Shown: piece after piece, positions 2,214 through 20,652 of the stretch | How positions within the stretch are numbered: the stretch's first letter is position 1 | How the letters are laid out: each line of letters begins with the position of its first letter | Source of the DNA: an uncultured Chloroflexia bacterium | GTDB taxonomy: Bacteria > Chloroflexota > Limnocylindria > Limnocylindrales > CSP1-4 | Assembly: GCA_963767945.1 (NCBI GenBank) | Contig: CAVYGH010000013.1 | Span: 70,078-134,077 of the forward strand | Reading direction: 5' to 3' | DNA length: 64,000 nucleotides | Program-made: the position numbers and the translations under genes | Notes under the pieces: model-generated | Databases searched by the model: none | Seen by the model: only the letters and a program-made list of their open reading frames with translations | Told to the model about the DNA's origin: nothing

Positions 2214-2368
2214 TCCTCCTCGGACAGGCGCCGGTTGATGCGGCCGATCTCATCCACGAACCGCAGCCGGAGCGGGTGCTCCAGGTCGAGGATGCTGTCC
2301 ATCGGCCAGTGGAAGTGATAGGCGACGTACGCGACCTCTTCGAACAGCCGGTCGGTCGCGTACGTCAC
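2210..2368 (-). CDS. small conserved CIS-associated ORF, 52 aa
   Basis: GTG at 2368 overlaps the stop of 2365..2799 (GTGA), and its own stop overlaps the next start (GTGA). Translation is VTYATDRLFEEVAYVAYHFHWPMDSILDLEHPLRLRFVDEIGRINRRLSEEE with high GC3. It is below the ORF-track size cut-off. I recall similar 50-60 aa ORFs (DUF6760-type, number from memory) at this position in actinobacterial CIS loci. Confidence 0.55.
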   Translation of the reverse strand: MTYATDRLFEEVAYVAYHFHWPMDSILDLEHPLRLRFVDEIGRINRRLSEEE

Positions 2369-2799: not shown

Positions 2800-2806
2800 C
2801 TCGGCC

Positions 2807-3241
2807 TCAGGCCTTGATCAGGGTCTCGCAGGACAGGGTCGCCTCCTCGATCTGGACGCCGCTCGTCGTGGCGCCGCCCTCGGAGAGGCTCACCTTGGAC
2901 AACATCGCGTTGGTGAAGTCGTAGCGAAGGATCTCCTCGCCCATCGTGTTCATGAGGATCACCGAGCCGTTGCGACGGTCCGGGTTCCCCTGCATGACGG
3001 CGGCGTGCCAGTCCCAGATCTCGGTCGCCCCGGTGAGGCCGCGCTTGAGCGTGACCGTCGGGGTCTTCGGCTTGCCCGGGAGCTTGCCGATGGTGACCTT
3101 GCCCTGGTCGTTGACGAACGGGTTGTCGACGATCTCGACCTCGCTCGAGACGCCCGAGACCGAGGTGAAGTTCGCGACGACGCCGACGCCGTCGATGTCC
3201 AGCAGGACGTTGCCTTGCAGCAGCGGATCAGTCGTGGGCAT
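2807..3241 (-). CDS. contractile-tail tube protein (gp19-like)
   Basis: 144-aa ORF directly after the sheath gene. The segments VLLDIDGVGVVANFTSVSGVSSEVEIVD and TLKRGLTGATEIWDWH are typical of tube proteins. Confidence 0.85.
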   Translation of the reverse strand: MPTTDPLLQGNVLLDIDGVGVVANFTSVSGVSSEVEIVDNPFVNDQGKVTIGKLPGKPKTPTVTLKRGLTGATEIWDWHAAVMQGNPDRRNGSVILMNTMGEEILRYDFTNAMLSKVSLSEGGATTSGVQIEEATLSCETLIKA

Positions 3242-3280
3242 CGGTGCCTCCGTGGCTTTCCAGGCGGGTGGTCATGACGG

Positions 3281-4783: not shown

Positions 4784-4874
4784 GCGTGGCCCTTTCCGAT
4801 GCGATGGATCCCAGCCCGCTGACCGTCCCACCCGCGGAGGGGCCGAACAAGGTGCGACCGGGCGCGCGGGAGGG

Positions 4875-4890
4875 CGGGCACGATTGCCCG
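4875..4890. promoter_or_regulatory. inverted repeat in the divergent sheath/terminator control region
   Basis: CGGGCA-CGAT-TGCCCG (6-4-6), 79 nt upstream of the GTG at 4969 and 92 nt upstream of the ATG at 4783. Confidence 0.25.
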
Positions 4891-4968
4891 AACGGGCGAC
4901 CAGCGCTGCCCCGACGGATGCCCGCCGACCGGCTGGCGGCGGCTCGCGCGTGGGCCGACGATCGGCGG

Positions 4969-5695
4969 GTGATCCACGACGTCGATCAGCTGCTCGAGAA
5001 GCTGGTCAAGCGCGACGCGCTCAACGGCTCGTCCGTCGACCTCGTCTTCGAGGCGCCCACGAAGGACTGGGTCGCCCGGCGGAGCGGGCCGGCCGTCGAC
5101 CTCTACCTGTACGACATCCGCGAGGACCTTCAACGGCGGGTGCCGGCCTGGGAGGACGTCCGAGACGCCAACGGGACCGTGACCCGCCGCCACCAGCCGC
5201 CGCGCCGGTTCCGGCTCGCGTACCTGGTGACCGCGTGGACCCAGCGGCCCGAGGACGAGCATCGGTTGCTGTCGTCGCTGCTCGCGTGCTTCCTGCGCAA
5301 CCCGATGATCAAGCCCGAGGACCTCGACAAGCCGCTGGACGAGGCGGACCTGCCGGTCTACCTCGAGGTCGGCCAGCCGGCCAGCCAGGAGCGCTCGCTG
5401 GCGGACGTCTGGTCCGCGCTGGGCGGCGAGCTCAAGCCATCGCTCGACCTGGTCGTCACGGCGCCGATCGTGGTCGACTCGAGCGCCTACTTCGGGCCGC
5501 CGGTGCTCGAGGGCCCGTCCATCGGGATCTCGTCGACCGGCGGAGCCGCCGAGTCGCGCCGCGGGGCCAGCCGCCGGCAGGGCCGACCTGGAGCTGGAGC
5601 CGTCCACCACCGAGGTGCTGCCGGCCAACGCGGGCGCCAAGGATGGCGGCGTGCGGATCCGGGTGAGCGGCGTCCGGCGACCGCCCCGCCGGTGA
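4969..5695 (+). CDS. DUF4255 (Pvc16/Afp16-like) tail terminator protein; one +1 frame change near 5580 as assembled
   Basis: GTG at 4969 gives VIHDVDQLLEKLVKRDALNGSSVDLVFEAPTKDW...RRFRLAYLVTAWTQRPEDEHRLLSSLL. After ~5580 the high-GC3 frame moves by +1 and ends at the TGA at 5693-5695, which overlaps the next GTG (GTGA). Confidence 0.75.
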
Positions 5696-7846
5696 CGACG
5701 GCGCCCGGCGCGACGCCGACACCGGGCGAGACGCCGGCGTTCGACGTGACGCCCACGCCCGGCCGCTCGGCCGCGCCGGACCCGTCGCTCGCCCACCTGC
5801 TCGGGCGCCTGTCGCTGGTCGAGCGCCGCGTGCGGGCCGCCGTCGACCGCCGGCGGGCCTCCGACGCCGATCCCGGCGACCGCTTCCGCGGCCTGTACAT
5901 CTCCGACGAGCAGGTGGACGGGCTGCTGGATCGGCCCGCCGGCCCGCTGGTGCCGCCGGAGGCGGACGCGTCGACGGCCGAGCTCCGAGCGGCGCTCGAG
6001 GCCCGGGCGGAGGCGGCGGAGGCCGACGGCGCGATCCTCCGGCTGCGCGATCTCGCCCGGGTGTTCGCGCTCCAGCCGGTGGACACCGAGCTGCTGCTGG
6101 TGGCGCTCGCCCCCGACCTCGACCCGCGCTTCGAGCGCCTCTACGGCTATCTCCACGACGACGTCTCGCGGCGTCGCGCGAGCGTCGGCCTGGCGATCGA
6201 GCTGTGCGGCGCGACGACGGCCGCCGACGGCGCGCCGATCCGCGAGCGCCTCGGCCCGCTCGCGCCGCTCGTCGCCGGACGTCTGCTGATCGTGGAGGAC
6301 GCCGACCGCCCGTCGCTCACGCGGCCGCTGCGCGTGCCCGACCGCGTCACCGCCCACCTGCTCGGCGACGACCGCCCCGACCCGATCGTCGAGGCGTTGC
6401 TGGCGTCGTCGATCGCGGTCGAGGTCGACGAGGCGGAGGTCGTGGCCCGCGGTCTGGCCGCCGGCCGGACGCTCGTGTACGTCCGCGAGCGCGCCGGCGC
6501 ATCCGGGCGGTCGCTCGGCTGGACGGCGCTCGCGCGCGGCGGGCGCCCGGCGATCGCGCTGGACCTCGGCCGGATGTCGGCGGGCGACGACCCGGTCCAG
6601 CTGGCGGCCGCCGCGTCCCGCGAGGCGCGGCTGCGCGGCGCCGGCCTGGTGGTGGGCCCCGTCGAGCCGCTCGTGGAGCGCGGGCCGGCCGCCGTCCGGG
6701 CCTTCGCCGAGCAGGCCGGTCCGGTGATCCTCGTCGGCGGCCGGGACTGGGACCCGGCGTGGTCGCGGGAGCCGCCGCTCATCGTGGACGCTCCCGTCCC
6801 CGGCGTGGAGCGCCGCCACGAGCTGTGGCTCGGATCGCTCGACGGCGACGCCCCCGAGGGGTTCGACCCCGCCGCGGCGACGATCGCGTTCCGCCTGACC
6901 CCCGAGCAGATCGACCGCGCCGCCCGGGCCGCCCGCCATGCCGCAGGCGCCGAGGCGCGGCCGATGACGATCGGCGACGTGTCGGCCGGGGCGCGGGCGC
7001 AGAACGCGGCGGGCCTGGAACGGCTCGCCCGCCGCATCGAGCCGACCGTCGCGCTGGGACGACCTCATCCTGCCGACGGTCGTCGACGCCCAGCTGCGGG
7101 AGCTGACCGCCCGCGCCCGGCACCGCGACCGGGTCATCGGGGAGTGGCACATGGGCACCAAGGGCGCCCGCGGCGTCGGCGTGACGGCCCTGTTCGCGGG
7201 CGACTCCGGGACCGGCAAGACGATGTCGGCCGAGGTCGTCGGGCACGACCTCGGCCTCGACGTCTACGTGATCGACCTGTCCACCGTGGTCGACAAGTAC
7301 ATCGGCGAGACGGAGAAGAACCTCGACCGCATCTTCACCGAGGCCGATCGCGTCAACGGGATCCTGCTGTTCGACGAGGCGGACGCGCTGTTCGGCAAGC
7401 GGTCCGAGGTCAAGGACGCCCGCGACCGGTACGCGAACGTCGAGGTCGCCTACCTGCTCCAGCGGATGGAGCGCTTCGACGGGCTGGCGGTGCTGACGAC
7501 CAACCTGCGCTCCAACGTCGACGAGGCCTTCGTCCGCCGGCTCGACGCCATCGTCGACTTCCCGATGCCCGAGGAGGAGCACCGGCGCCGCCTGTGGGCG
7601 GCCAACCTCGCCCCGGACCTGCCGATCGCCGGCGACATCGACCTCGACTTCCTGGCGGGGCGGTTCAAGATCTCGGGCGGCAACATCCGCAACGTCTGCG
7701 TGACCGCCGCCTACCTCGCGGCCGCGGAGGATCGACCGGTCACGATGGCCGACCTCGTGCGGGCGACGGAGCGCGAGTACCGCAAGCTCGGGCGGCTGAC
7801 CGTTGAGGCCGAGTTCGGCGAGTACTACGACCTGGTGAACGGGTAG
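5692..7846 (+). CDS. CIS AAA+ ATPase (Afp15/Pvc15-like); one +1 frame change at ~7054 as assembled
   Basis: The N-terminal domain has the FRGLYISDEQVDGLL motif. The junction reads ...RIEPTVA / WDDLILPTVVDAQLRELT.... Walker A is GDSGTGKT and Walker B is ILLFDEADALF, both in listed ORF 7151..7846. Confidence 0.85.
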
Positions 7847-7972
7847 CGGACGCCGGTCGGCCGACATCCCCCCGTGTGCCCCTTGGGGCAGACTTCCGGG
7901 CGGTCGTGCTCGAGCCCATTGCGGAGGCCGTTTCGGTGGTCGATCCTGAGCCTGGACACAGGAGGACCGCCA

Positions 7973-8679
7973 ATGCGCGATTTCGAGTTGGAGGCCGCCC
8001 GCGGCGCGCTGCGGGCCCCGGAGCGCGACGTTCCCGCGCCGGCCGCGGGGGAATCGGCCCCGGGCGCGCCGGCCCGGTCGCCGGCGCTCGACGCGGCGAC
8101 CCTGATGCACCTCCAGCGCACGGCCGGCAACGCGGGCGTGGTGCAGATGCTGGCGGGCGAGGAGGAGCAGGCGTCGCCGGTCCACGAGGTCGTGGGCTCG
8201 GGCGGTGGTCGTCGCTCGACGCCGGCACGCGCTCGACGATGGAGTCGGCGTTCGGCCAGTCGTTCGACGAGGTCCGCGTCCACACCGACGACCAGGCGTC
8301 GAAGTCGGCCGAATCGGTCGGCGCGAACGCGTACACGGTCGGGTCGGACATCGTGTTCAAGAGCGGCCAGTTCGACCCCGGCAGCGCGTCGGGCCAGCGG
8401 ACCATCGCGCACGAGCTGGCCCACGTCGTCCAGCAGTCGCAGGGACCCGTCGACGGCTCGGACGCCCCCGGTGGCATCCGCGTCAGCGACCCGTCGGACC
8501 GCTTCGAGCGTGCCGCGGAGTCGACGGCCGACCAGGTGATGTCCTCGGTCTCCGCGTCGCCGCCATCGTCGGCGGCGCCGGCCGGCGTGCAGCGCGAGGA
8601 GGACGAGGCCTCGGGCGCCGTCGCGGCGGTGCAGCGCGAGGCGACGCCCGAGGAGGAGGAAGAGGAGCTCCCCTCCTGA
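7973..8679 (+). CDS. DUF4157 zinc-metallopeptidase-like protein (CIS cargo/marker family); one -1 frame change at ~8211 as assembled
   Basis: AGGAGGA lies 6 nt before the ATG at 7973. The N-terminus has LQRTAGNAGVVQML. The junction reads GSGGG(R)/SLDAGTRSTMESAFGQSFDEVRVHTD, followed by an HELAH motif and an acidic tail EEEEEELPS. Confidence 0.8.
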
Positions 8680-8686: not shown

Positions 8687-9334
8687 CTAGATCAGGCCCT
8701 CGCGGATGGCGTACGCCACGGCGTGCGCCCGGTTGCGCAGCTCGAGCCGCGACGTCACGTCGTGGATGATGTTCTTGACGGTCCGCTCCGAGTAGTACAG
8801 CCGCCGGCCGACCTCGGCGGTGTCGCAGCCGTCGGCGAGCAGCCGGAGGACGGCGGCCTCGCGCTCGGTCAGGCCCGAGAACGTCAGCCCGCGCGGCGAC
8901 AGCACCTGGCGCTGGAGCTGGCCGACCTGGCGCAGGAGGCGCCCGAGGAGGTCCGGCGGCAGCGTGCCCTCGCCGGCCGCGGCGGATCGGATCGCGGCCG
9001 CCAGGTTGCCGGCCGTGGCCTCGCTGCGGCGGATGACGCCCGTGACGCCCGCCTCGGCCGCCGCGAGGAGCGACCGGTCGTCCACGCGTGAGACCAGGAG
9101 GACGATCCGTCGCACGCCGCGCGCGCGAAGCGCGCGCATCTCGGCGATGACCTCGGGCGCGACCTCCTCCGTCACCACCAGCGCGACCGAGTCCTCGGGC
9201 GGCTCGTCGTCGGCGACGACGACGAACCCCTGCGCCCGGCGGAGCTGGCTGGCGATGCCCGCCCTGGACAACGGGTCTGAGGCCCGCACCGCGACCGGGA
9301 TCGGGGCCTTGGTGGGCATCGGTTCGGCGACCAT
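8687..9334 (-). CDS. LuxR/NarL-family transcriptional regulator with an atypical receiver-like N-domain
   Basis: C-terminal HTH LTEREAAVLRLLADGCDTAEVGRRLYYSERTVKNIIHDV. Start preferred at the ATG at 9334 (GGGGAG 7 nt upstream); the ORF track extends to 9349. Confidence 0.8.
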   Translation of the reverse strand: MVAEPMPTKAPIPVAVRASDPLSRAGIASQLRRAQGFVVVADDEPPEDSVALVVTEEVAPEVIAEMRALRARGVRRIVLLVSRVDDRSLLAAAEAGVTGVIRRSEATAGNLAAAIRSAAAGEGTLPPDLLGRLLRQVGQLQRQVLSPRGLTFSGLTEREAAVLRLLADGCDTAEVGRRLYYSERTVKNIIHDVTSRLELRNRAHAVAYAIREGLI

Positions 9335-9373
9335 TCGGGATCTCCCCACTCGCGCTCCCGGCCGCCATCCACC

Positions 9374-9387: not shown

Positions 9388-9557
9388 TCCGGGAACCAGT
9401 CGGGCGACCCTAACGGGCCCGGCTGTCCGGCCAGTCAACGTGGACTTAACGGGCATCGCCGGCTGCCCTCGGCGTCGCCCGGATAGGCCGATCGAACTAC
9501 CCCGATGACCGCTCGGCTGGCTGTGCGGGCGTGGAACCCGCGGCTACACTCACGCCC

Positions 9558-10820
9558 GTGGGAGCATCCGTCACGCTGGTCACGCCTGCCCTGTCGGTCG
9601 AACCGGGGCAGGTGGCCACCGGCGAGGTCCGGGTCCGGAACACGGGCAGCGTCGTCGACGAGTTCACCCTGGACGTCCTCGGTGACGCCGCGGGCTGGGC
9701 CGCCGCCGAGCCGGCCGTCCTCTCGCTCTTCCCCGGCGCCGAGGGCACCGCCAACGTCGTGTTCCGGCCGCCGCGCGTCGCGACCACGCCCGCCGGGACG
9801 GTGCCGTACGGACTCCGGGCCCGCTCGCGCGAGGACCCCGCCGGGTCGGCCGTCGAGGAGGGCTCGGTCGAGGTCGGCGCGTTCCTCGACCCGTTCGCCG
9901 AGCTCGCGCCGCGCACGTCCCGCGGCTCCGGCTCCGGCTCCCACGACCTCGCCATCGACAACCGCGGCAACCTGCGCCTGAACGCCGAGGTCGAGGGCAC
10001 GGACGCGGACCGCCAGCTCAGGTTCGACATCAGGCCGCCGGGCGTGGTCGTGGAGCCGGGCATGGCGGGCTTCGCGAAGATCCGCGTCAGCCCGGTCAAG
10101 CGGTTCTGGCGCGGCCAGCCCAAGACGCGGCCGTTCCAGCTCTTCGTCCGTCCCGAGGGCGGCACGCCCATCACGCTCGACGGCACGCTGCTCCAGGAGT
10201 CGGTCCTCCCGCCCTGGTTCCTCAAGGCGCTGATCGCCCTCGTCGTGCTGCTGATCGCGCTGGTCCTGATCTGGCTGCTGCTGCTCAAGCCGACCATCCA
10301 GACCGCGGCGAGCGAGGCGGTCGAGTCGCCCCTCGCGAGCCTCAAGGCGGACGTCAACGACGCGCTGGGCGCCGCGGGCCTGCCGACGATCGGCCCCGAG
10401 GCGAGCGGCGGCAGCGGCGAGTCCGAGGCACCGTCGGGCGGCGCCCCGTCTGGCGAGGCGCCGAGCGGCGGCGGACCGTCGTCTGCCCCGACGAGCACGC
10501 CGGGCGTCGTGATCCCGGGCCTCGGGAACCCCGTCGACGGGCGCCTCGACAGCACGCACCCGCAGGTCGACGAGGACGGCACCCTGTTCGTGACCGACTT
10601 CGTGTTCTCCAACCCCAACGGGGCCGAGGGCGCGATCGTGGTGTCGCGCAACGACACGCCGCTGCTGCAGCTGCGGCTCGAGAACTTCCGCGACTACGAC
10701 CTGCACTTCGTCACCCCGATCGTCCTCGGCCCGGACGACGCGCTGAACCTCACGCTGAGCTGCACGAGCCCCGGGTCATGCGACCCCGCGGTCTTCTACT
10801 CCGGATACCTGCGGCCCTGA
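9558..10820 (+). CDS. bitopic membrane protein: two N-terminal Ig-like (CARDB/NEW3-like) repeats, one TM helix, a Gly/Ser/Pro linker and a C-terminal domain of about 110 aa
   Basis: Intact ORF. TM segment is ALIALVVLLIALVLIWLLLL. Repeats are LSVEPGQVATGEVRVRNTGSVVDEFTL and HDLAIDNRGNLRLNAEVEG. No N-terminal signal peptide. The start could be 9531 or the GTG at 9558; a TACACT -10-like hexamer lies at 9545-9550. Confidence 0.5.
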   Translation: MGASVTLVTPALSVEPGQVATGEVRVRNTGSVVDEFTLDVLGDAAGWAAAEPAVLSLFPGAEGTANVVFRPPRVATTPAGTVPYGLRARSREDPAGSAVEEGSVEVGAFLDPFAELAPRTSRGSGSGSHDLAIDNRGNLRLNAEVEGTDADRQLRFDIRPPGVVVEPGMAGFAKIRVSPVKRFWRGQPKTRPFQLFVRPEGGTPITLDGTLLQESVLPPWFLKALIALVVLLIALVLIWLLLLKPTIQTAASEAVESPLASLKADVNDALGAAGLPTIGPEASGGSGESEAPSGGAPSGEAPSGGGPSSAPTSTPGVVIPGLGNPVDGRLDSTHPQVDEDGTLFVTDFVFSNPNGAEGAIVVSRNDTPLLQLRLENFRDYDLHFVTPIVLGPDDALNLTLSCTSPGSCDPAVFYSGYLRP

Positions 10821-12925
10821 GCCCCGCGGTTCGCCGGGTCGCCGCAGCCGCGCTGGGCCTGGCGCTGGTCGCCCCTGCGGCGCCCGTGCCGCCGGTCGCC
10901 GCCTCGCAGGGCGCGGCGCCGCTTGCCGCCGGCCCTCGGATCGCCTCGCCGGCGCCGGTCACGCCGCCCGTGGGGCCGTCGGACGCCCCGCTGCCGGCGC
11001 CACCCGGGCGGACGACGCTCGTGTCCCAACGCGCCGGCGGCGGCTTCCCGAACAACGCGTCCGCGGAGCCGTCGATCTCGGCCGACGGGCGGTACGTGGC
11101 GTTCGCCTCCTCGGCCACGAACATCGCGGGCGGCGGCGCGGCGCCCAACCCGGCGGTCTACGTGCTCGACCGCCAGCGGGGCCGGACGATCCGCCTCCCG
11201 CTGCCGCCGGGGTTCGCGGGCGGCGGGCAGGCCCGCGAGCCGTCGATCTCCGCCGACGGCAACGTGGTCGCCTTCACGTTCCAACCGCCGTCGGGGCTCG
11301 CGGTGCCCGGCAGCCTCGTGATCGCGTGGGATCGGGGCACCGGCCGCTCGCAGGTCGCGTCGCGGACGTCGGCGAACGAACCCGCGGCCGGCAGCCGCGA
11401 GCCGTCCGTGTCCGCGACCGGCCGGTTCATCGCGTACACGTCCAACAACGTCAAGATCGTCGCGGGCATCGGAGACAACCTCAACGTCTTCCGGTTCGAC
11501 CGGCGCACTCGCGACACCGACCTGGTCTCGGTGGGCTTCGGGGGCCAGCCGATCGGCGCGACCAGCGGCGCGCCGTCGATCTCGGGCGATGGCGGCGTCG
11601 TCGCCTACGTGTCCGACGGCGGGGACGTGATCACCCACACGAACACGGGCTCAGGGTTGCAGGTCTACGTCAGGCGGATGGCTGCCGGGCGACCTCGCCA
11701 GGTGAGCGTCGCGATCGACGGCGCCCCGAACGGCGCCTCCGGTGCCCCGGCGATCTCGGCCGACGGGCGGGTCGTCGCGTTCGAGTCGGCCGCCCCGAAC
11801 CTCGTCGCGGACGACGGCAACGGCGCGCCCGACGTCTTTCGCCGGGACCTCGCGGCCGGCGCGACGACCCTCGTCTCGGTCACGCCCGGCGGCGACGCCG
11901 CCGGCGGGCAGAGCCGGCTGCCGGCCATCTCGGCGGACGGTCGCATGATCGCGTTCCAGTCCAGCGCCCCCGACCTCCTCGGCCCGGTCGCGTCCGTGCC
12001 CGACGCCCACCTCGCGGCCGTCGCGATCGCGCAGACCGAGGTCTACGAGCGCGACGTCGTGCTGGGCGACACCGTCCTGATCTCGGTCGCCCGCAACGGT
12101 GGCCCGGGTGGCCGCGCGAGCCTGATGGCGACCGTCGGCGGCAACGGCCGCTACGTGGCCTTCGCCTCGACCGCGGACACGCTCGTGCGCAACGACCGCC
12201 TCAAGCACGCCGACGTGTTCCTGCGCGACATGCCGCCGGCGCCGAGGCTCAACCCGGACACGATCGCGTTCGGCACGCTCGCGGTCGACGCCGCCGCGGC
12301 GCCGGCGGCGGCCACGCTCGTCAACGCCGGGTGGGGACCCCTGTCCGTCCGACGCGCCGCGATCACCGGCGCCGCCCGCAACGACTACGACGTCGTCGCC
12401 GACGGCTGCGTCGGGCGGGTGCTCCACCGCCAGGACGCCTGCACGGTGACCGTGCGGTTCGCCCCGTCCCGGGCCGGTGCACGCCCGGCCACCCTCGCCG
12501 TGCCCGACTCGTACGCGGGGTCGCCGCGCACCGCCGGCCTGCGCGGATCCGGGCTGCGGGCACCGCGCGCATTCGACCCTCGGCTGGTGCTCGATCCGGA
12601 GGTCGGCCCGCCGGGCACGGTGGTCGTCGCGACGGGTTCGGGGTTCCCGCCCAACGCGGACGTGCGCCTCGCCTGGTCGATCGGCATCACGCCCAAGCTC
12701 CCGCTCGTCCGGGCGGACGCCGCCGGGCGGTTCCGCGTCCAGGTGCTGGTCTTCCACAACGACCGGATCGGCCCGCGTGACCTGCGCGCCGCGCCCGTCG
12801 CCGCCGGCGCCTTCCCGACCGTGCCCGCGGACATGACCGTCACCAGGCCCTCCGTCGGGCCGCCGGGGTTCCTCATCATCCGACGCGTGATCGACCTTCC
12901 ACTCGTGCTCCTGATACGAGGCTGA
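10778..12925 (+). CDS. exported PD40/TolB-like beta-propeller repeat protein with C-terminal Ig-like domains
   Basis: Signal-peptide-like N-terminus. Contains at least 6 repeats of the type EPSISADGRYVAFAS, PSISADGNVVAF, PAISADGRVVAFES and PAISADGRMIAFQS. Intact, and overlaps the upstream gene by 43 nt. Confidence 0.7.
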   Translation: MRPRGLLLRIPAALSPAVRRVAAAALGLALVAPAAPVPPVAASQGAAPLAAGPRIASPAPVTPPVGPSDAPLPAPPGRTTLVSQRAGGGFPNNASAEPSISADGRYVAFASSATNIAGGGAAPNPAVYVLDRQRGRTIRLPLPPGFAGGGQAREPSISADGNVVAFTFQPPSGLAVPGSLVIAWDRGTGRSQVASRTSANEPAAGSREPSVSATGRFIAYTSNNVKIVAGIGDNLNVFRFDRRTRDTDLVSVGFGGQPIGATSGAPSISGDGGVVAYVSDGGDVITHTNTGSGLQVYVRRMAAGRPRQVSVAIDGAPNGASGAPAISADGRVVAFESAAPNLVADDGNGAPDVFRRDLAAGATTLVSVTPGGDAAGGQSRLPAISADGRMIAFQSSAPDLLGPVASVPDAHLAAVAIAQTEVYERDVVLGDTVLISVARNGGPGGRASLMATVGGNGRYVAFASTADTLVRNDRLKHADVFLRDMPPAPRLNPDTIAFGTLAVDAAAAPAAATLVNAGWGPLSVRRAAITGAARNDYDVVADGCVGRVLHRQDACTVTVRFAPSRAGARPATLAVPDSYAGSPRTAGLRGSGLRAPRAFDPRLVLDPEVGPPGTVVVATGSGFPPNADVRLAWSIGITPKLPLVRADAAGRFRVQVLVFHNDRIGPRDLRAAPVAAGAFPTVPADMTVTRPSVGPPGFLIIRRVIDLPLVLLIRG

Positions 12926-12932
12926 ACCGACG

Positions 12933-14066
12933 ATGACCGACCAACCCGGAACGATCTGCAAGCGCTGCGGCTTCAGCAACATCCCGGGCGACCAGTTCTG
13001 CGGCTCGTGCGGGGCGTTCCTGCCGTGGGAAGGGCAGCCGACCGATGCCCAGGCCGGCGAGCCCGGGTCGCCCGCGGTCCCGGCGCCGGTCGATCCCGCG
13101 GCGCCGGACGACGCCTCGGCGTCGTGGGGCGCGCCGTACGGCGATCCGCTGCCCACGCCGCCGCCGGTCCCGGCGTGGCCGGACGACGATGAGGACGACG
13201 ACGGCGACCTCGTCCGCTGCCCCGCGTGCGGGATCGCCAACCCGTCGAACCGGACCTTCTGCCAGTCGTGCGGCACGACCCTGGCGGCCGCGGCGCGGGT
13301 CGAGGACGCGTCGGACGACGAGATCGCGGCCGCGGTGGCGATGACGCCGACGCCGGTCGCCGAGCCGACGAGCCCGACCACGACGGCCCGTGGTACGCCC
13401 GACGGGAAGCGCGGCGTCCCGTCGTGGGTGATCGGCGTCGGCGTCGTCGGCCTGCTGGTCGGCGTCGCGATCGTCCTGGCCGGCCTCGCCCTGCGCGGCC
13501 CCGCCCCGGACTCGGGTGCCACGGGGTCCGGCGACGTCCCGTCGGGAGCGGCGGCCAGCGGCGCCCCGCAGGCCAGCGGCCCGTCGGGCTCGGCGTCGGC
13601 GCCCGGCACGCCCGTCCCGCTCGTGTTGACCAAGGCGAAGGCCTCGTCGGTCGCGGGCGACCGGCCGAAGTTCCAGCCGGGCATGGCGATCGACGGCGAT
13701 CCCGACACCGCGTGGCAGGAGGGCGCCCAGCAGGAGAAGGACCAGTGGATCGAGGTCGCGTTCGACGCGTCGCGCGCCGACACGCTGGTCGTCCGGAACG
13801 GCTACCAGGCGTCCCAGGCGCAGTTCCGCGGGACCCGGCGGCTCAAGGACGTCCTGGTCACCGTCAACGGCGGCAAGGCGATCCCGGTGAAGCTCAAGGA
13901 CTCGATGAAGCCCCAGGAGATCGACCTCGGCGGCGTCTCCGGGGCGACCAAGGTCAGGATCACGATCGTCTCGACCTGGCCGGGCGAGGCGACATCCGTC
14001 GACGGCACGCCGTTCGACGACGCGGCGGTGAGCGAGCTCACCGTGCTCGGCGTGCCCGGGGGCTGA
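12933..14066 (+). CDS. double zinc-ribbon, TM, discoidin (F5/8 type C-like) domain protein
   Basis: Zinc ribbons CKRCGF..CGSCG and CPACGI..CQSCG. TM segment is WVIGVGVVGLLVGVAIVLAGL. The C-terminal domain has AIDGDPDTAWQEG...VRITIVSTWPG. Confidence 0.65.
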   Translation: MTDQPGTICKRCGFSNIPGDQFCGSCGAFLPWEGQPTDAQAGEPGSPAVPAPVDPAAPDDASASWGAPYGDPLPTPPPVPAWPDDDEDDDGDLVRCPACGIANPSNRTFCQSCGTTLAAAARVEDASDDEIAAAVAMTPTPVAEPTSPTTTARGTPDGKRGVPSWVIGVGVVGLLVGVAIVLAGLALRGPAPDSGATGSGDVPSGAAASGAPQASGPSGSASAPGTPVPLVLTKAKASSVAGDRPKFQPGMAIDGDPDTAWQEGAQQEKDQWIEVAFDASRADTLVVRNGYQASQAQFRGTRRLKDVLVTVNGGKAIPVKLKDSMKPQEIDLGGVSGATKVRITIVSTWPGEATSVDGTPFDDAAVSELTVLGVPGG

Positions 14067-14087
14067 CAGCGTGCGCGGCGCTGCCGT

Positions 14088-15673
14088 ATGGTCCGCTCGG
14101 ACGCGACGGGCGTCCGGCGGTCCACGTGGGGGGACCAGGTGAGCGGATTCGGAGCGGGCGTCGGCAAGGCCGTCGGAGGCCTTGGCGGGCCGCAGGTCGC
14201 CGCGATCGCGATCGCGGGCGGGCTCGTCGTCGGGGCGATCGGCGGCGGGCTCATCGCCGGCGGCGGGTCGGGCCAGGGGGCGACCTCGGCGGCGACGCTG
14301 GCGATCTACCCCTGTCCCGAGGCGGGACCCGCGCTGGCCACGGTCCCGTCCGGGCAGCAGTTCCTGGTGACGGGCAAGAACGCCGACGCGACCTGGGTCC
14401 GGATCTACTACCCGCTGCCGGGTCGAACCGAGGCGTGGGTGACGTCGGGCCCCCTCCAGTTCGACGGGTCGCTGGGCGCCCTGCCGGTCGTGCCCTGCTC
14501 GCCGGTCGAGGCCGGCCCGGGCGCCTCGGTCGAGCCGGGCGCGTCGCTGACGGCGATCCAGGACAACAGCCCGTCGCCGCCGCCGTCAGCACCGCCCACG
14601 ACCGGGCCGACCACCTCCCCGGACGGCGGGCCCACGCTCGCGCGGCTCGAGTTCGGGACGACGATCGCGGGCGGCCCGCAGCGCTACTGCCAGCGCGTGC
14701 CGCGCTCGATCACGATCAGCGTCCGCGCGACGGATCGAACGGGCGTCGCCTCGGTGGAGCTGTCGTACCGCAAGCCCGGGGCGGCGAACTTCGCCACCAA
14801 GGCCATGTCGAGGGTCGGCGGGAGCGACACCTGGCGGGCGACGCTCGCCACGGATCCGGACGGCATCACGGGCCCGGCAGCCTCCGCTTCTTCGTCAGCG
14901 GCGACGGACGAGGACCCGAAGCCCAGGACGTCGCGCCTCCGCCGCGCGCTCGATCGGCGTCGTCGACTGCGCCAACGAGGGCCCGGTCCTCGCGTCGCTG
15001 CGGGCGGCCCCGGCCAGCGTGGTCACGAACCCGGGACGCCTGCCAGGAGAGCCCGAAGACCACGGCGATCACCGTGAACGCCACGGACGTCGACGACGTG
15101 GCCGGCGTCACCCTCCACTACCGGCTGCCGGGCGACGGATCGTTCCGCGACGCGAAGATGACGAAGAACGGGGACCGCTGGCGGGCGACGGTGACGCCGG
15201 TCGACCAGCGGCCCAACGCCGACGGCAAGGCCTCGTACTACGTCGTCGGCGAGGACGACCTCGGGAAGTCGAGGCGGTCGCCGACCCGGACGTTCACGGT
15301 CAACCGCTGCAACTTCCCGGCCACGCTTCGGTGTCGTCAACTGGGACACGAACCAGGTCTGCGCCTCGGCGACGACGGTCTTCGCGAGCATCGGGCGGGC
15401 CAACGACGCGGACGGCCTCGACGGCCCAGAGCGCCAAGGTCGTCTACACGCTTCACGCCGAAGGGCGGCGGCCGGAGGACGGCGAGCCGGTCGCTGGCGC
15501 AGACCCAGGTGATCGGCGACAACCACTACTACTCGGGGCAGGTCGGGCTCAAGGGCCTCGAGCCCGGGAGCACCATCTCGGCGTACGTCCAGCTGACCGA
15601 CAAGTACGGCAAGACCACGAAGGACCGATCGCCGAACGACACGTTCTCGGTCCAGGTCGCGGCGGGGTGCTGA
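14088..15673 (+). pseudogene. membrane-anchored SH3b-like plus three tandem Ig-like-module protein; at least 7 frame changes between 14875 and 15490 as assembled
   Basis: The first 263 codons are intact, with a Gly-rich TM and SH3b-like ATLAIYPCPEAGPALATVPSGQQFLVTGKNADATWVRIYY. The remainder is readable only by switching frames at ~14875(-1), 14900, 14940, 15034, 15326, 15426 and 15490. The modules repeat the pattern ITISVRATD..VELSYRKPG..W, AITVNATD..VTLHYRLPG..W and VVYTLHA... Confidence 0.5.
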
Positions 15674-15677
15674 GGCG

Positions 15678-17624
15678 ATGAGCCGCGCCGCCGCGTTCCT
15701 GCCCAGGCTCGTGCTGTTCGGGGTCATGGTGATCGTGGGCTTCGTGGTGAGCTCGGCGGTCGTGCTCGCGCTCCAGGACCGAACGCCGCAGTCGGCCGCG
15801 ACCGAGGCGCCCGACTACGTGCTCGCCGGCGCGCCCGACACCCCCGGCGGCTCGCCGGTGCCGGTGGCGTTCGACGCCCTGCCGTCCGGCTCGGCGGTCC
15901 CGCTCGAGTCCCTCGCCCCGGCCGACCTCACCGCGGCCGCCGACACCCTCCTCGGCGCCGAGCCCGCGGCCTACAAGAACCCGTCAGGCTTCCCGCGCGT
16001 GCCGCCGATCTCCCAGTTCGATGGCGGCCCATTCCAGGGCTCGAACTGCACCCTCACCTCGGGCGCGATGCTGGCCCGCCTCGGGTTCGGGATCGTGACC
16101 TCGGGCTCGACGCTGCGCGGGCTCCAGGACGACCAGGATGGGGGGACCGACCTCAACGACCTCAACCAGGCCCTGTGGCGCGGCTACGGGGTCACGTTCA
16201 AGACCGGCTTCCTCCGGCCCGACCAGCTCAAGTCCCTGCTCGCGGAAGGGTTCGGCACCGTCATCCAGGGCGACTACTCGAAGATCCCGCGCGGCCTGCG
16301 CCTCCAGAAGGACTTCCTGGGCGGCCACGCCATCTACCTCGACGGCTACTACCCGGGCAACCCCGACAAGGGCATCCCCGAGGCCTACTACGTGATCGAC
16401 CCGCTGGGCCGGCCGCACTCGGGCTACGAGGGCGACTGGTGGCCGGCGTCGGTGGTCGACGACTTCGCGACCGCGTTCGGCGGCGGACGCGTCCCCGCGA
16501 TGTGGGGCTATCCGCCGGGCGGCGTCCCGCCCGAGGTGGTCGGGCCCGACGTGCTGCCGATCCCCCATGGTGGCGGCGGCGGTGGCGGCGGCGGACCGAC
16601 GTCCACGCCGAAGCCCGGCGAGTCGGCGAGCCCGGGCGCGAGCGCCTCGCCGTCGGTCCCGCCGGTGATCGAGCCCGGCGACCTCCCGCCGGTCACGCCG
16701 GCCGAGGACACCCCGATCGACGGCGGCCCCGACCTCGGCGGCGTGGTCCTGATCCCGATCCTCGAGATCTGCCTCATCGACCCGCCGCCCGCAGGCTGCC
16801 CCACCGGCGTGCCCGCGGTCTTCCAGTTCGAGGCGACGCCGGTCCTCGAGGTCCCGCCCGGGCCATCGGTGGACGTCGTGTTCGTGGACTCGGACCGGCC
16901 CAACGTGGCGATCGTCGGGTTCACGGTCGACCCACCGGGGCCGGCCACGGTCCACGTCTGGCAGCACGACGGCTCGCCGCCGACCATCGGGACGCCGTCG
17001 TCGATGTCCTCGCTCACGCTGTTCGGGACCACGGTCCAGCTCGCCAACCTCGACGTGCTCGCCTCGACCGCCTACGACTTCCAGGTCACGGCCGGCAGCG
17101 GGCTATCGGTCGGGAGCAGCCCCGTCGGCCAGTTCACCACCGGCAACGGCGTCGAGCAGTTCGACGTCGCCCTGTCCCAGGCCGTCTCGCCGACCTTCGC
17201 GCTCGAGGACGGGCTGTCGCCCTACCTCCACCTCGCGCCAGGTGCGTACGCCCTGCCGCTGGTGCCGCTCGCCGACCTCGGCGGCGGGTCGTGCGACGAC
17301 GAGCTCGGCTTCGGCGGCGTGGGCTACTGCGCCGACATCGGACCCGGCGTCGCGGTCCCCGACACCTGCACCCGCGCCCAGGTCACGTACGCGCTGGCTG
17401 GCACCGAGGCCGAGTCCGTCGTGGTCCGGGCGTTCCCCGTCGAGGAGGGCACGACGCCCGAGGGCGAGGTGAGCCTGGAGGCCGTCCTCGAGGCCGAGGG
17501 CCCCGTGCCGTCGGGGGAGGTGAGCGTCGGCTGTCTCGCGCCCGGGCTGGCCTACCACGTCGTGCTCGACGCGATCGGCGACGACCGGGGGATCCTGGCC
17601 TCGGCGGACGTGACGGCGCCCTAG
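15678..17624 (+). CDS. membrane-anchored protein with a possible papain/transglutaminase-like Cys-His-Asp core, a Gly9 linker and a large Pro-rich beta-rich C-terminal region
   Basis: N-terminal TM LVLFGVMVIVGFVVSSAVVLAL. Candidate catalytic triad is GSNCTLTSGAM, GGHAIYLDGYY and YYVIDPLG. Intact, 648 aa. Confidence 0.4.
   Translation: MSRAAAFLPRLVLFGVMVIVGFVVSSAVVLALQDRTPQSAATEAPDYVLAGAPDTPGGSPVPVAFDALPSGSAVPLESLAPADLTAAADTLLGAEPAAYKNPSGFPRVPPISQFDGGPFQGSNCTLTSGAMLARLGFGIVTSGSTLRGLQDDQDGGTDLNDLNQALWRGYGVTFKTGFLRPDQLKSLLAEGFGTVIQGDYSKIPRGLRLQKDFLGGHAIYLDGYYPGNPDKGIPEAYYVIDPLGRPHSGYEGDWWPASVVDDFATAFGGGRVPAMWGYPPGGVPPEVVGPDVLPIPHGGGGGGGGGPTSTPKPGESASPGASASPSVPPVIEPGDLPPVTPAEDTPIDGGPDLGGVVLIPILEICLIDPPPAGCPTGVPAVFQFEATPVLEVPPGPSVDVVFVDSDRPNVAIVGFTVDPPGPATVHVWQHDGSPPTIGTPSSMSSLTLFGTTVQLANLDVLASTAYDFQVTAGSGLSVGSSPVGQFTTGNGVEQFDVALSQAVSPTFALEDGLSPYLHLAPGAYALPLVPLADLGGGSCDDELGFGGVGYCADIGPGVAVPDTCTRAQVTYALAGTEAESVVVRAFPVEEGTTPEGEVSLEAVLEAEGPVPSGEVSVGCLAPGLAYHVVLDAIGDDRGILASADVTAP
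16569..16595 (+). repeat. GGY codon run encoding Gly9
   Basis: ggt ggc ggc ggc ggt ggc ggc ggc gga, in frame with 15678..17624. Confidence 0.8.
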
Positions 17625-17686: not shown

Positions 17687-19169
17687 ATGGACGCACGACC
17701 CCTGCCACGGGGCGCGGCCACCTCGGCGCCGCACCGCGTGGTCATCATCGGCGGCGGTTTCGCCGGCCTGTATGCCGCCAAGAACCTCGGCAAGGCCGGC
17801 GACCTCGTCGACGTCACCCTGATCGATCGGCGGAACCATCACCTGTTCCAGCCGATGCTCTACCAGGTCGCCACGGGCGCCCTGTCGCCGGGCGAGATCG
17901 CGCAGCCCCTGCGCTCGATCTTCCGCAAGCAGCGCAACACGACCGTGCTGCTCGGGGAGGCGATCGACATCGACGCCCAGAAGCGCGAGGTCCGGCTCTC
18001 GGACGGCGGCCCGGTGCCCTACGACACGCTGATCGTCGCCACCGGCGCCCATCACGCCTACTTCGGTCACGAGGACTGGGCGCCGTACGCGCCGGGCCTG
18101 AAGACCATCGACGACGCGACGGAGATCCGGCGCCGGATCCTGATCGCCTTCGAAGCCGCCGAACGCGAGGCCGACCCGGTCGAGCGGCGGGCGTGGATGA
18201 CGTTCGTGCTCATCGGGGGCGGGCCGACGGGCGTGGAGCTCGCCGGCGCGCTGGGCGAGATCGCCAACGACACGCTGCGCCACGACTTCCGGTCGATCAA
18301 CCCCCAGGACGCCAGGATCGTGCTGATCGAGGCGATGGACCGCCTGCTCGCGACCTACCCGCCCGGGCGCTCCGCCTCGGCGCGCCGCCAGCTCGAGAAG
18401 CTGGGCGTGATGGTGCGCACGAAGACCAAGGTCGTGCACGTGGAGGACGGCCTGGTCCGCATGGAGACGGCGGCCGGCGAGACCCAGCAGATCCACGCCC
18501 ACACCGTGCTCTGGGCCGCGGGCGTCCTGGCGTCGTCGTTCGGGCGGAAGGTCGCGGCGGCGACGGGCGCCGAGACGGACCGCAGCGGCCGGGTGCGCGT
18601 TCGGCCGGACCTCACGGTCCCCGGGCACCCGGAGGTGTTCGTCGTCGGCGATGCGGCCGTCCAGCCGTGGAAGAAGGACCGCGCCACGCCGGGCGTCGCC
18701 CAGGGCGGCATCCAGGGCGGCTCGTACGCGGCCAAGGCCGTCCTCGCGCGCCTCCGCGGGCAGCCGGTGAAGCCGTTCCGCTACAGCAACCACGGTGACG
18801 TCGCGGTCATCGGCCGGCTGCGGGGCGTCACCGACATCCCGTGGATGGGCCCGTTCGGCCAGCAGGGCGGCTTCACCGCCTGGCTGCTGTGGCTGGGCGA
18901 TCCACATCGCGTACCTGATCGGCTTCGCGAACCGGATCGTGGTCGTCACGCGCTGGGCGTTCTCGTTCCTGACCCGCGGCCGGTCGACGCGCCTGATCAC
19001 GGGCCAGCCGCTGGTGCCGCCGATCGAGGCGCCGCTGGCGGTCGACCACGACGGGCCGCCGGACGACGAGCCGCCGGCGGACGGGACGAGCGCCGGCAGG
19101 CACCGTCACCCCGAGGCCCGGGCGGCCGACCCCGAGTCGGCGCCGACCGGCGAGCGCGTCGAGGCCTAG
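17687..19169 (+). CDS. ndh: type II NADH dehydrogenase (NDH-2); one extra base at ~18899 as assembled
   Basis: Dinucleotide folds VVIIGGGFAGL and LIGGGPTGVELAG. The junction reads ...FTAWLLWLG / IHIAYLIGFANRIVVVTRWAFSFL and continues in listed ORF 18795..19169. Confidence 0.85.
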
Positions 19170-20575
19170 GCCCGGGCCCGGTTCGCGGCCACGATCCCAG
19201 CCAGCCGGGCGATCCCGGGCTCGATCGCCGGCTCCCGGATGACGCCGTAGCCGAAGATCAGGCCGCCCGGTCCGGGCGCGATCCGCCGGGCCGCGAGCCC
19301 GCCGACGGCGACGCCGGCCTCGGCAGCGTCCGCGACGGTGCGTGCCTCGTCGACGTCGGGCGGCAGCCACGCGAGCACGTGCAGGCCCGCGGCCGCGCCG
19401 ACCGGCCGGACGTCCGGCAGGTGTCGCGCGAGCGCGGCCAGCAGCGCGTCGCGACGGCCGCGGTAGATCGGCCGCATCCGGCGCAGGTGGTGATCGAGCT
19501 CGCCGCGCTCGAGGACGTCGGCGAACGCGAGCTGGTCGAGGGCCGGCGAGCCCATGTCGGCCGCCTGCTTGCGCTCGACCAGGCTGCCGGTGAGCTCGGG
19601 CGGGGAGAGCAGCCAGCCCAGCCGCAGCCCGGGCGCCAGCACCTTGCTCGCCGACCCCGCGTAGACCACCCGGTCCCGGCACAGGCCCTGGATGGCGCCG
19701 ATGGGCTCGCGGTCGTAGCGGAACTCGGCGTCGTAGTCGTCCTCGACGACCCACGCGCCGCGGCGGGTCGCCCAGTCGGCCAGCGCGGCCCGCCGATCGG
19801 GGGGCAGCACGGCGCCGGTCGGGTACTGGTGGGCGGCGGTGACGACCACGCCATCGACGTCGAGGTCCTCGAGGCGATCGACCCGCAGGCCGTGCTCGTC
19901 CACGGGCACGCCGACCGCGTCGAGCCCGGCCGACGCGAGGGTCGCCCGGTACTCGGGGTCCGAGGGATCCTCCACCGCGATCCGCCGCGCGCCCCGGTCG
20001 CGCAGGACGCGGGCCGTGAGCGCGAGGCCCTGCGCAAACCCGTTGCAGATCACGACGTCGGCGGGGTCGGCGGCGGTGCCGCGGGCGCGGTTGAGGTACG
20101 TCGCGAGGGCGATCCGCAGCTCCGGGGTCCCGGTTCCGCCGAGGTAGGTGAGGCGCTCGCTCGGCGCCTTCGCGAGGGCCGCCCGCAGGCTGCGCAGCCA
20201 CACGGCCCGGGGAAACTCGGACACGTCCGGCCGGCCGGGCCGGAAATCGAACTCGACCGCGGCCGCCGGCTCGATGGCCGGGGCGCGCGCCGGGGCGGCG
20301 ATCGCGGATCGCGCCACCCTTGTCGCGCCCCCGGCCCGGCTCGACAGGTAGCCCTCCGCGACCAGCTGCTCGTACGCCTCGACGACGATCCCGCGCGAGA
20401 CGCCCAACTGGCCGGCGAGCGCGCGCGTCGAGGGCAGCGGGGCCGCGGCGGGCAGCCGGCCGTCGCGGATCGCCTCGCGGAGCGCCTGCTCGAGCTGGCG
20501 ATGGAGCGGGCTCGGGCGCTCGCGGTCGAGCTCGACGAGCAGCTCGAGGTCGGAACTGGTCCTCGTTCTTGCCAT
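19166..20575 (-). CDS. MocR/PdxR-type regulator (GntR wHTH fused to a PLP aminotransferase-like domain)
   Basis: wHTH STRALAGQLGVSRGIVVEAYEQLVAEGYL and an AAT-fold region with SASKVLAPGLRLGW. Start taken at the ATG at 20575 (MARTRTSSDLELLVELD). Confidence 0.8.
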   Translation of the reverse strand: MARTRTSSDLELLVELDRERPSPLHRQLEQALREAIRDGRLPAAAPLPSTRALAGQLGVSRGIVVEAYEQLVAEGYLSSRAGGATRVARSAIAAPARAPAIEPAAAVEFDFRPGRPDVSEFPRAVWLRSLRAALAKAPSERLTYLGGTGTPELRIALATYLNRARGTAADPADVVICNGFAQGLALTARVLRDRGARRIAVEDPSDPEYRATLASAGLDAVGVPVDEHGLRVDRLEDLDVDGVVVTAAHQYPTGAVLPPDRRAALADWATRRGAWVVEDDYDAEFRYDREPIGAIQGLCRDRVVYAGSASKVLAPGLRLGWLLSPPELTGSLVERKQAADMGSPALDQLAFADVLERGELDHHLRRMRPIYRGRRDALLAALARHLPDVRPVGAAAGLHVLAWLPPDVDEARTVADAAEAGVAVGGLAARRIAPGPGGLIFGYGVIREPAIEPGIARLAGIVAANRARA

Positions 20576-20652
20576 CGAAGCGGACCTTATCAGGGGTCCG
20601 GTCTCGCGGCACGATGGTCTCGTCAACCGGTCATCATCACGGAGGCCATGAG

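Follow-up and report, generated by a model that had tools for sequence, protein, structure and literature searches.

A probable accessory envelope operon of a type IId contractile injection system in an uncultured Limnocylindrales bacterium

A predicted five-gene operon and its divergent regulator

We analysed 64,000 nucleotides (nt) of DNA (referred to as the window) from an uncultured Chloroflexia bacterium of the Limnocylindrales (GenBank assembly GCA_963767945.1, contig CAVYGH010000013.1, positions 70,078 to 134,077 of the forward strand), in which an operon of five genes for membrane-anchored or exported proteins lies beside genes of a contractile injection system (CIS). The window has a G+C content of approximately 74%, and its coding frames are clearly marked by the G+C content at the third codon position (GC3). 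An initial annotation, made from the sequence alone, had proposed five co-directional genes with successive spacings of –43, 7, 21 and 4 nt, and both coordinates and gaps were borne out, with all five genes located on the plus strand at GC3 values of approximately 0.9–0.97. The operon had further been said to abut a CIS arm and to face a divergent regulator, and a LuxR/NarL-type gene was indeed found on the minus strand at 8687–9349, with CIS genes upstream. The features of this region are the following (Ig, immunoglobulin; TM, transmembrane).

9558–10820, plus strand: gene 1, bitopic protein assigned to the Sco4256/4257/4258 family
10778–12925, plus strand: gene 2, predicted exported PD40 β-propeller with a choice-of-anchor D / Ig-like C-terminal part
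12933–14066, plus strand: gene 3, bitopic protein with a CisA-like architecture (candidate)
14088–15673, plus strand: gene 4, TM segment, SH3-like segment and three Cys-bracketed Ig-like modules; frame broken in the window
15678–17624, plus strand: gene 5, TM anchor, putative papain-fold (C39-like) domain, Pro-rich linker and C-terminal FN3/Ig-like domains
8687–9349, minus strand: NarL/LuxR-type response-regulator-like transcription factor, divergent from gene 1 (GerE, E 1e-11)
9521–9550, plus strand: predicted gene 1 promoter (–35-like CTGTGC at 9521–9526, TACACT at 9545–9550)

In the predicted promoter of gene 1, the CTGTGC element is followed by an 18-nt spacer, the –10 element TACACT and, after a further 7 nt, the GTG start codon at 9558. 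Because the promoter stands only 7 nt ahead of the start codon, the gene 1 transcript would be leaderless. This layout, consisting of a –35-like element, 18 nt, TACACT (or TAGACT), 7 nt and a GTG or ATG codon, was kept in nearly all related loci examined, and the start at 9558 was additionally backed by homologues opening with M/VGASV. A GTG at 9531 had also been considered as the start of gene 1, and was dropped for 9558 on the basis of the homologue N-termini and the promoter layout. An operon-wide scan for promoters and terminators revealed nothing meaningful. Transcription of the five genes would thus be expected from this one conserved leaderless promoter, divergent from a NarL-type regulator that is kept in actinobacterial type IId CIS clusters.

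Besides GerE, the regulator showed weak full-length matches to NarL, NarP and MadR, and it was 46–53% identical to the LuxR genes of the CIS clusters of Streptomyces, of the Streptomyces cattleya plasmid pSCATT and of Flindersiella. In one related locus, the regulator and gene 1 are separated by a gene for a 949-amino-acid (aa) multi-PAS protein, which is probably a sensor kinase (L002:6840–9689); L027 represents that contig with an offset of 15 nt, and L016 shows an equally wide, unannotated spacing between the two genes. The multi-PAS protein of this clade would supply a partner for the orphan NarL-type regulator.

Two accessory membrane families: gene 1 and gene 3

Gene 1 had initially been described as a bitopic protein with two Ig-like repeats on the cytoplasmic side, one TM segment and a small outer domain, and the AlphaFold2 model (mean pLDDT 80.6) agreed with this description. 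The model revealed two β-sandwiches within residues 1–215, followed by a helix of 55 residues (219–273) that holds the sole hydrophobic segment of the protein (225–243 by hydropathy; TM approximately 219–245), a disordered Pro/Ser/Gly linker, and a conserved eight-stranded β-sandwich with two conserved Cys residues (320–420). Conservation scores were highest for the predicted cytoplasmic parts, with 0.77–0.81 for the Ig domains of gene 1 and approximately 0.7 for the zinc ribbons of gene 3 (see below), and were 0.24–0.30 for the linkers. A Foldseek search with the gene 1 model yielded Hydin/FAP47 (7SQC_T0), the SPD-2 domain of CEP192 (7PTB), 2QSV and RbmA as top matches, followed by PapD/FimC chaperones, WxLIP and protein 4.2, and no match resembling a substrate-binding or discoidin domain. 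These structural neighbours and the TM position are those of the HHpred table published for Sco4256, in which domain 1 is matched by PapD-chaperone-like structures and domain 2, the TM domain, lies at 219–250 (PMC10020575).

Sco4256, Sco4257 and Sco4258 share a closely similar N-terminal part and one TM domain, and differ in a variable C-terminal domain (Casu et al., PMC10066040). The first domain of the Sco4256 family was likewise described as resembling pilus chaperones and the second as a TM domain, and homologues were reported in the IId regions of other Actinobacteria, Cyanobacteria and Chloroflexi (Vladimirov et al., PMC10020575). In our comparisons, Streptomyces plasmid proteins encoded at equal cluster positions stood in for Sco4256 and Sco4242 (CisA), supplemented by the published HHpred tables. 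A profile search with gene 1 against 1.84 billion cluster representatives retrieved 960 clusters at E ≤ 1e-30. Family members in Flindersiella and Kitasatospora are labelled 'COG1470 family protein', and the Streptomyces genes retrieved from plasmids by tblastn carry the labels 'hydrolytic protein', 'RICIN domain-containing protein' and 'hydrolase' (E 4e-53 for the Streptomyces member and E 7e-44 for the pSCATT homologue). The RICIN-domain match on a plasmid of Streptomyces sp. NBC_01426 lies between a DUF4157 gene and the genes for the cis15 ATPase, cis16 and a LuxR regulator, which is the position of sco4256–4258 in S. coelicolor. Alignment of the gene 1 family with this RICIN-domain protein by hhalign gave a probability of 99.96% (E 3.4e-39, 39% identity over 246 columns), and the alignment spans the TM helix and a juxtamembrane motif KP-x-I/V-x-S/T-AA-S/T-EA. 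In the reverse tblastn search, the NBC_01426 protein matched gene 1 in all 55 of the 55 sequences searched.

Because the hhalign result, the structural neighbours and the published descriptions all agree, we assign gene 1 by sequence to the published Sco4256/57/58 family of type IId CIS. The likeness comprises a PapD-like tandem Ig domain of approximately 215 residues, a TM segment at approximately 219–250 and the juxtamembrane motif, as well as the genomic setting, in which the gene adjoins DUF4157 and the cis15/cis16 arm of a IId cluster and a LuxR regulator is close by. Gene 1 differs in that it is present in single copy, in contrast to the three paralogues Sco4256–58, and heads an operon of five genes. 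Its C-terminal domain, a two-Cys β-sandwich of approximately 100 residues, is moreover not of the ricin or lectin kind; the Kitasatospora and pSCATT homologues share this conserved domain, which yielded no Pfam or PDB match and no match to toxins or lectins. On the plasmids of Deinococcus, the first Ig domain of gene 1 recurs in FHA-domain Ser/Thr kinases and hypothetical proteins (26–33% identity over approximately 130–145 residues); type IId CIS also occur in Deinococcota (PMC12998442).

The initial annotation had likened gene 1 to CisA, the membrane protein that is needed for CIS contraction in situ in S. coelicolor and that is predicted to contact Cis11 (PMC12237407). This part did not survive. 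Gene 1 is devoid of zinc ribbons, no Cys precedes residue 402, its N-terminus is a folded Ig tandem rather than disordered, and the NADase-type discoidin C-terminal domain is absent, so that gene 1 belongs to another family and has only the generic bitopic layout in common with CisA.

It is gene 3 that resembles CisA. Its 377-aa product had been read as a double zinc ribbon / TM / discoidin protein, in line with the Pfam, NCBIfam and hydropathy results. A first zinc ribbon (C9, C12, C23, C26) is followed by a low-complexity linker, a second ribbon (C96, C99, C110, C113), a TM segment (169–187) and an NADase-type discoidin domain (234–370). Both ribbons have a CxxC-10-CxxC pattern, and all eight Cys residues were invariant in 14 orthologues. 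Pfam matches were to DZR (E 3e-9; also Zn_Ribbon_1) and NADase_transloc (E 1.4e-11), and the NCBIfam match was to NADase_discoid, the NADase-type glycan-binding domain (E 3.4e-26). For Sco4242, HHpred likewise indicated an N-terminal zinc ribbon and a C-terminal domain matching NADase_NGA (99.7%) and then discoidin/F5_8-type C domains, and a Cys-rich element approximately 50 residues ahead of the TM segment was also described (PMC10020575).

The gene at the cisA position of the NBC_01426 plasmid, directly downstream of the genes for gp25, baseplate J and a tail protein, encodes a 545-aa protein labelled 'zinc ribbon domain-containing protein', which matches the same Pfam families as gene 3 and carries Cys residues at 6/9/20/23 and 301/304/315/318 and a TM segment at 364–382. 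BLASTP aligned gene 3 with this protein collinearly, with E values of 5e-6 for the first ribbon and 7e-5 for the C-terminal domain, and hhalign of the 14 gene 3 orthologues with it gave 96.1% (E 3.2e-9). In the reverse search, gene 3 was the sole match of the NBC_01426 protein in the 64-kb window; 28 related loci were also matched, and most of the matches inspected there coincided with the position of gene 3 (E 4e-5 to 8e-3). Given the equal families, the Cys pattern, the collinear BLASTP and hhalign alignments and the reverse search, gene 3 rather than gene 1 is the protein of this operon with the CisA architecture, as judged from its sequence, and we regard it as a candidate orthologue only. 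Gene 3 and CisA have in common an N-terminal zinc ribbon, a low-complexity cytoplasmic region, a second CxxC-10-CxxC ribbon approximately 50 residues before a single TM segment, and a discoidin domain. Gene 3 is the more compact (377 versus 468–545 aa), with approximately 70 instead of approximately 277 residues between the ribbons, and lies within an operon on the cap/ATPase side, whereas the CisA gene is found directly downstream of the baseplate genes. The suggestion that the operon holds a CisA-type protein therefore stood as far as architecture is concerned, with gene 3 in the place of gene 1.

Neither gene 1 nor gene 3 encodes a signal peptide, so that their N-terminal domains should be cytoplasmic; their C-terminal domains would be expected outside, because these are paired-Cys or glycan-binding folds that follow Pro/Ser-rich linkers. 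Gene 1 would then place its PapD-like tandem Ig domain in the cytoplasm, cross the membrane with one helix and expose a small β-sandwich, and gene 3 would hold two zinc ribbons in the cytoplasm and, beyond one membrane helix, a glycan-binding NADase-type discoidin domain outside. Flindersiella endophytica encodes three gene 1 paralogues beside Pvc16_N, a WHD-AAA ATPase and a GerE regulator (L055:1–11392), and one of these paralogues (498 aa) has a gene 3-type N-terminal zinc ribbon fused to gene 1-type Ig domains. Since a single operon holds both families and this fusion joins them, the sequence data suggest that the gene 1 and gene 3 families cooperate at the cytoplasmic side of the membrane.

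Two other roles for gene 1 have to be weighed against this arrangement. In the first, gene 1 would itself be the membrane adaptor on which the CIS docks, like CisA in role though not in family, with genes 2–5 as envelope-side partners. Gene 1 is bitopic, its large and very conserved N-terminal domain is predicted to be cytoplasmic, and, unlike gene 3, it occurs in all loci linked to a CIS, also in those of the deep clade and of pSCATT, for which no gene 3 was found within the sequenced flank; Sco4256 also co-purifies with CIS particles (PMC10020575). However, the zinc ribbons and discoidin domain are missing from gene 1, Streptomyces has both families and nevertheless requires CisA for contraction, and loss of Sco4256–58, which leaves assembled particles with an empty lumen and phenocopies loss of the CIS (PMC10066040), reads as loss of cargo rather than of an anchor. 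We therefore consider an adaptor role for gene 1 improbable.

The same empty lumens in the triple mutant, together with the toxicity of Sco4256–58 in E. coli (PMC10066040) and the lectin- or toxin-like C-terminal domains found in about a third of the family (PMC10020575), would fit gene 1 as a toxic effector that is loaded into the CIS. Genes 2–5 would in that case be unrelated to it or would serve self-protection or processing, and the conserved peptidase-like triad of gene 5 could process a substrate. This, too, seems quite unlikely to us: the C-terminal domain of gene 1 is a small conserved β-sandwich with neither toxin nor lectin match, a single-pass membrane protein of 420 aa would be an odd lumen cargo, and both the shared operon with a CisA-type gene and the ribbon fusion in Flindersiella point to action at the membrane.

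Linkage to the CIS and its interpretation

Upstream of the regulator, the window contains the following CIS genes.

7876–8679, plus strand: open reading frame (ORF) for a DUF4157 / eCIS_core protein (eCIS_core, E 6.8e-30 on 8239–8679)
4786–7846, plus strand: CIS cap and ATPase arm, Pvc16_N (cis16-like) followed by WHD+AAA (cis15-like)
2210–4783, minus strand: CIS structural arm, continuing past the left end of the window, with the four features below
3281–4783, minus strand: sheath (Phage_sheath_1/1C match)
2807–3241, minus strand: tube (T4_gp19 match)
2365–2799, minus strand: second small protein of the structural arm
2210–2368, minus strand: DUF6760, found in identical short contigs

The cap/ATPase arm matched Pvc16_N (E 1e-38), WHD (E 1e-31) and AAA (E 2.6e-23), and frame segmentation indicated frame shifts near 5560–5690 and 7030–7150; in relatives, Pvc16_N and WHD-AAA are separate genes for proteins of approximately 250 and 700 aa. 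The sheath was 58–59% identical to the type IId sheaths of the Streptomyces plasmid and of S. cattleya pSCATT, and the AAA fragment of the ATPase (231-aa ORF, 7151–7846) was 65–69% identical to the ATPases of the same two plasmids. The locus thus has in common with type IId clusters the sheath, tube, DUF6760, Pvc16_N, WHD-AAA ATPase, DUF4157 and LuxR regulator. Chloroflexota CIS have been assigned to lineage IId, and their mode of action is probably cytoplasmic (PMC12998442); no link between Limnocylindria and CIS was found in the literature searched. All named homologues of gene 1 and gene 5 came from Candidatus Limnocylindrales or Chloroflexota metagenome-assembled genomes, and the 48 loci from species-representative genomes were all from Chloroflexota (48/48).

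Conservation of the linkage was counted over 54 gene 1 loci. A few of these are redundant: L002 and L027 come from one contig, and both L001 and L054 are near-identical to the window. The regulator was adjacent to gene 1 in 51 of the 52 loci with enough upstream sequence. Where at least 6 kb of upstream sequence was available (44 loci), this contained CIS structural genes in 35 loci, eCIS_core in 4, an annexin-repeat gene in 4 and none of these in one (L029). The proposed tie of the operon to the CIS is in this way borne out, with the regulator–gene 1 pair standing beside the cap/ATPase arm in almost every related locus. The pair also lies beside Pvc16 and AAA ATPase genes in Flindersiella, on the Streptomyces plasmid and on pSCATT. 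Genes 2–5 were present in 37 of the 44 loci with enough downstream sequence, and in all 37 gene 1 was at least 62% identical to that of the window. Deep-branching relatives (gene 1 identity 46–61%) retain the CIS, the regulator and gene 1, in most cases also gene 2 and in some cases gene 3. They lack genes 4 and 5, and their downstream neighbours differ each time, as seen at gene 1 identities of 46–58%. Since the block of CIS, regulator and gene 1 persists while the downstream flank varies, this block is the invariant unit, and the form with five genes, which can also stand alone, is an elaboration specific to a clade.

Loci L009, L010, L014 and L035 were at one point taken as lacking a CIS, a reading that was rejected: an annexin-repeat gene (2,500–2,800 aa) fills the 10-kb flank, so that absence of the CIS is not shown for these four. 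The giant proteins are encoded between the CIS ATPase arm and the regulator (L009:93–8342 and L035:378–8375, with similar ORFs in L010 and L014). The L009 and L035 copies were scanned and both contain annexin repeats, with an additional C-terminal Ntox4 toxin domain in L035; annexin genes also occur in L001 and L002. Annexin repeats are unusual in bacteria, and these giant proteins are probably variable cargo of the CIS.

Together, these data point to the five genes being, more likely than not, an accessory membrane or envelope operon of a type IId, Streptomyces-like and presumably cytoplasmic CIS. For gene 1 and the regulator the link with the CIS has good support; for genes 2 and 3 it is plausible. 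If S. coelicolor is taken as a guide, gene 1 and gene 3 would provide a membrane-side contact and a cargo or effector function for CIS firing, and genes 2, 4 and 5, as presumably co-transcribed, membrane-anchored or exported proteins facing the wall, would most likely bind or remodel the wall at that site, gene 5 possibly as a C39-like cysteine peptidase or amidase with FN3 domains. The initial view that the set could not be assigned to any pathway on record did not hold, because its two key members are published type IId accessory families, and the locus reveals no new kind of system. Unlike in the Streptomyces clusters, in which the two accessory membrane families are encoded at opposite ends, both are here co-operonic and accompanied by three extra envelope proteins.

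Several observations weigh against this assignment. L029 (9983–18217) carries the five genes and retains the gene 1 promoter layout, with no regulator or CIS within 10 kb; its operon neighbours are LacI, GH16 and an unrelated 889-aa gene, and it represents either a translocation or a genome from which the CIS was lost. In Kitasatospora sp. NPDC048540 (L056, 10001–11464), a full-length gene 1 homologue with conserved N- and C-terminal domains has ssgA and a transaldolase gene in its vicinity and no CIS genes within 10 kb. Genes 4 and 5 are absent from both the deep clade and the actinobacterial plasmids, and are tied to the CIS only through operon membership. The propeller of gene 2, taken alone, matches many unrelated secreted proteins and is a generic module. 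For gene 3, tblastn against the plasmid collection returned no match, the C-terminal domain is just 22–27% identical to that of the Streptomyces protein, and the gene stands on the cap/ATPase side, the opposite arm from canonical cisA (the baseplate end lies outside the window); a zinc-ribbon/TM/discoidin architecture may also be common outside CIS loci. Finally, an NDH-2-like gene downstream of the operon is syntenic in many loci, which indicates that some of the conservation is simple inheritance.

These points could be accommodated by a general Limnocylindrales module for envelope maintenance or remodelling that is adjacent to the CIS by inherited gene order only. The stand-alone operon of L029, the Kitasatospora homologue away from any CIS and the synteny of the unrelated NDH-2-like gene all speak for such a module, and the PD40, discoidin, SH3-like, Ig and C39-like domains all belong to the common repertoire of wall-associated modules. 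However, the CIS–regulator–gene 1 block survives where all downstream neighbours have changed and recurs across phyla, and the gene 1 and gene 3 families are the two accessory membrane families that have been tied experimentally to the Streptomyces IId CIS. A module of purely general function is therefore unlikely in our view, and an accessory operon of the CIS is the reading that we prefer.

A more far-reaching version of the accessory role, which we put forward tentatively and with considerable doubt, is that the five proteins together make up a single trans-envelope platform for the docking and firing of a cytoplasmic CIS. The Ig domains of gene 1 and the ribbon domains of gene 3 would be offered to the baseplate, the PD40, discoidin and SH3/Ig domains would hold the wall, and the C39-like enzyme would open it. 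If true, proteins of the Sco4256 family would be membrane-side receptor subunits rather than lumen cargo, and the Limnocylindrales operon would present the full receptor parts list. The membrane complex TssJLM of the type VI secretion system and the anchor of the thylakoid-anchored Anabaena CIS offer an analogy only, in that membrane proteins hold a contractile machine; there is no relation in sequence or fold, and their defining proteins are absent from the locus.

How cytoplasmic IId CIS meet the membrane, and what Sco4256-type proteins do, are open questions in the Streptomyces work. To these, the present locus adds both accessory families and three extra envelope proteins in one Limnocylindrales operon, a domain fusion linking gene 1-type and gene 3-type families, and, with gene 3, a CisA-type candidate in Chloroflexota, a phylum in which Roseiflexus has no close cisA homologue according to the literature. 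Genes 2, 4 and 5 become candidate partners.

Genes 2, 4 and 5 and the frame breaks in the window

Gene 2 had been annotated as an exported PD40 propeller, in agreement with a PD40 match (E 4e-20) and a predicted signal-like N-terminus, next to a choice_anch_D match (E 2e-11); its start is uncertain between ATG 10778 and GTG 10886. A weak collinear homologue is encoded beside the pSCATT CIS (E 5.6e-6 for the propeller and E 7.6e-9 for the C-terminal part), and the Flindersiella gene 1 homologue adjoins a gene for a 1422-aa PD40/Tricorn/CLIPPER protein.

Gene 5 had been proposed to encode a TM protein with a possible papain-like Cys-His-Asp core. The N-terminal TM anchor was recovered, and C124, H217 and D241 were invariant in 42 sequences (as was N123); the papain-like fold was indicated by these residues, by the order of secondary-structure elements and by sub-threshold matches to Peptidase_C39_2 (E 0.05–0.12, 13.3 bits against a cut-off of 24), obtained with 5 of 13 members. 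In the AlphaFold2 model, the Cys is located at the N-terminus of a helix (124–137) and the His on a strand (216–225). Foldseek with the full model returned only FN3/Ig tandems, the FN3 half dominating the matches, and sequence and profile searches of the PDB with the N-terminal domain revealed nothing useful. The 270 homologues of gene 5 matched no Pfam or NCBIfam family, and neither gene 4 nor gene 5 had relatives in the plasmid collection or a curated family.

Gene 4 spans 1586 nt in the window, which is not a multiple of 3, and its frame switches seven times between approximately 14875 and 15450. Intact homologues (525–541 aa) were aligned by tblastn in pieces over all three frames. Relative to the window, short-read contigs from four soil or rhizosphere metagenome runs contained one extra base after 14875 and lacked single bases at 14896/14897, 14941, 15037, 15324, 15423 and 15449. 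These seven edits convert gene 4 into a stop-free ORF of 1581 nt (526 aa) that is collinear with the intact homologues. The near-identical long-read assembly L054 (95.7% identity) showed 270 gap openings against the window over 21 kb, and its genes were still more fragmented than those of the window. Because the short-read contigs are free of all seven breaks and L054 is rich in insertions and deletions (indels), the frame breaks are almost certainly long-read consensus errors and not decay. The alternatives that gene 4 is a pseudogene, or that it represents two genes (14088–15077 and a second ORF), were rejected in view of the independent, unbroken short-read contigs and the intact corrected ORF.

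The corrected gene 4 product has an N-terminal TM segment (38–56) and Big_7/CBM_56-type modules repeated three times. Its description as a single ORF with TM, SH3b and three Ig modules could be kept for the Ig modules, with Big_7 above its cut-off (26.8 versus 24.1 bits) and CBM_56 weak; it did not apply to the broken frame in the window, and the SH3 part was weak (SH3_3, 17.8 bits against a cut-off of 27, E 0.004). Sequence and profile searches of the PDB with gene 4 gave nothing useful.

The downstream flank of the operon (17687–20626) encodes an NDH-2-like flavoprotein and a GntR-aminotransferase regulator, which were syntenic in approximately 20 and approximately 8 related loci, respectively, so that part of the local gene order appears simply inherited. 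Frame breaks similar to those of gene 4 were apparent in the cis15-like ATPase (approximately 7030–7150), in the NDH-2-like gene (approximately 18900) and in a gene at approximately 460–2200, which lies between tube genes and corresponds to 580–720 aa. Indels cluster in these few genes (14630–15670, 4786–7846, 17687–19170 and approximately 460–2200). Compared with L054, gene 4 had 42 indels and 68 mismatches per kb, and genes 1 and 2 had fewer than 1 and 6–8, respectively; the indel-rich stretches look like strain-variable regions with a poor long-read consensus.

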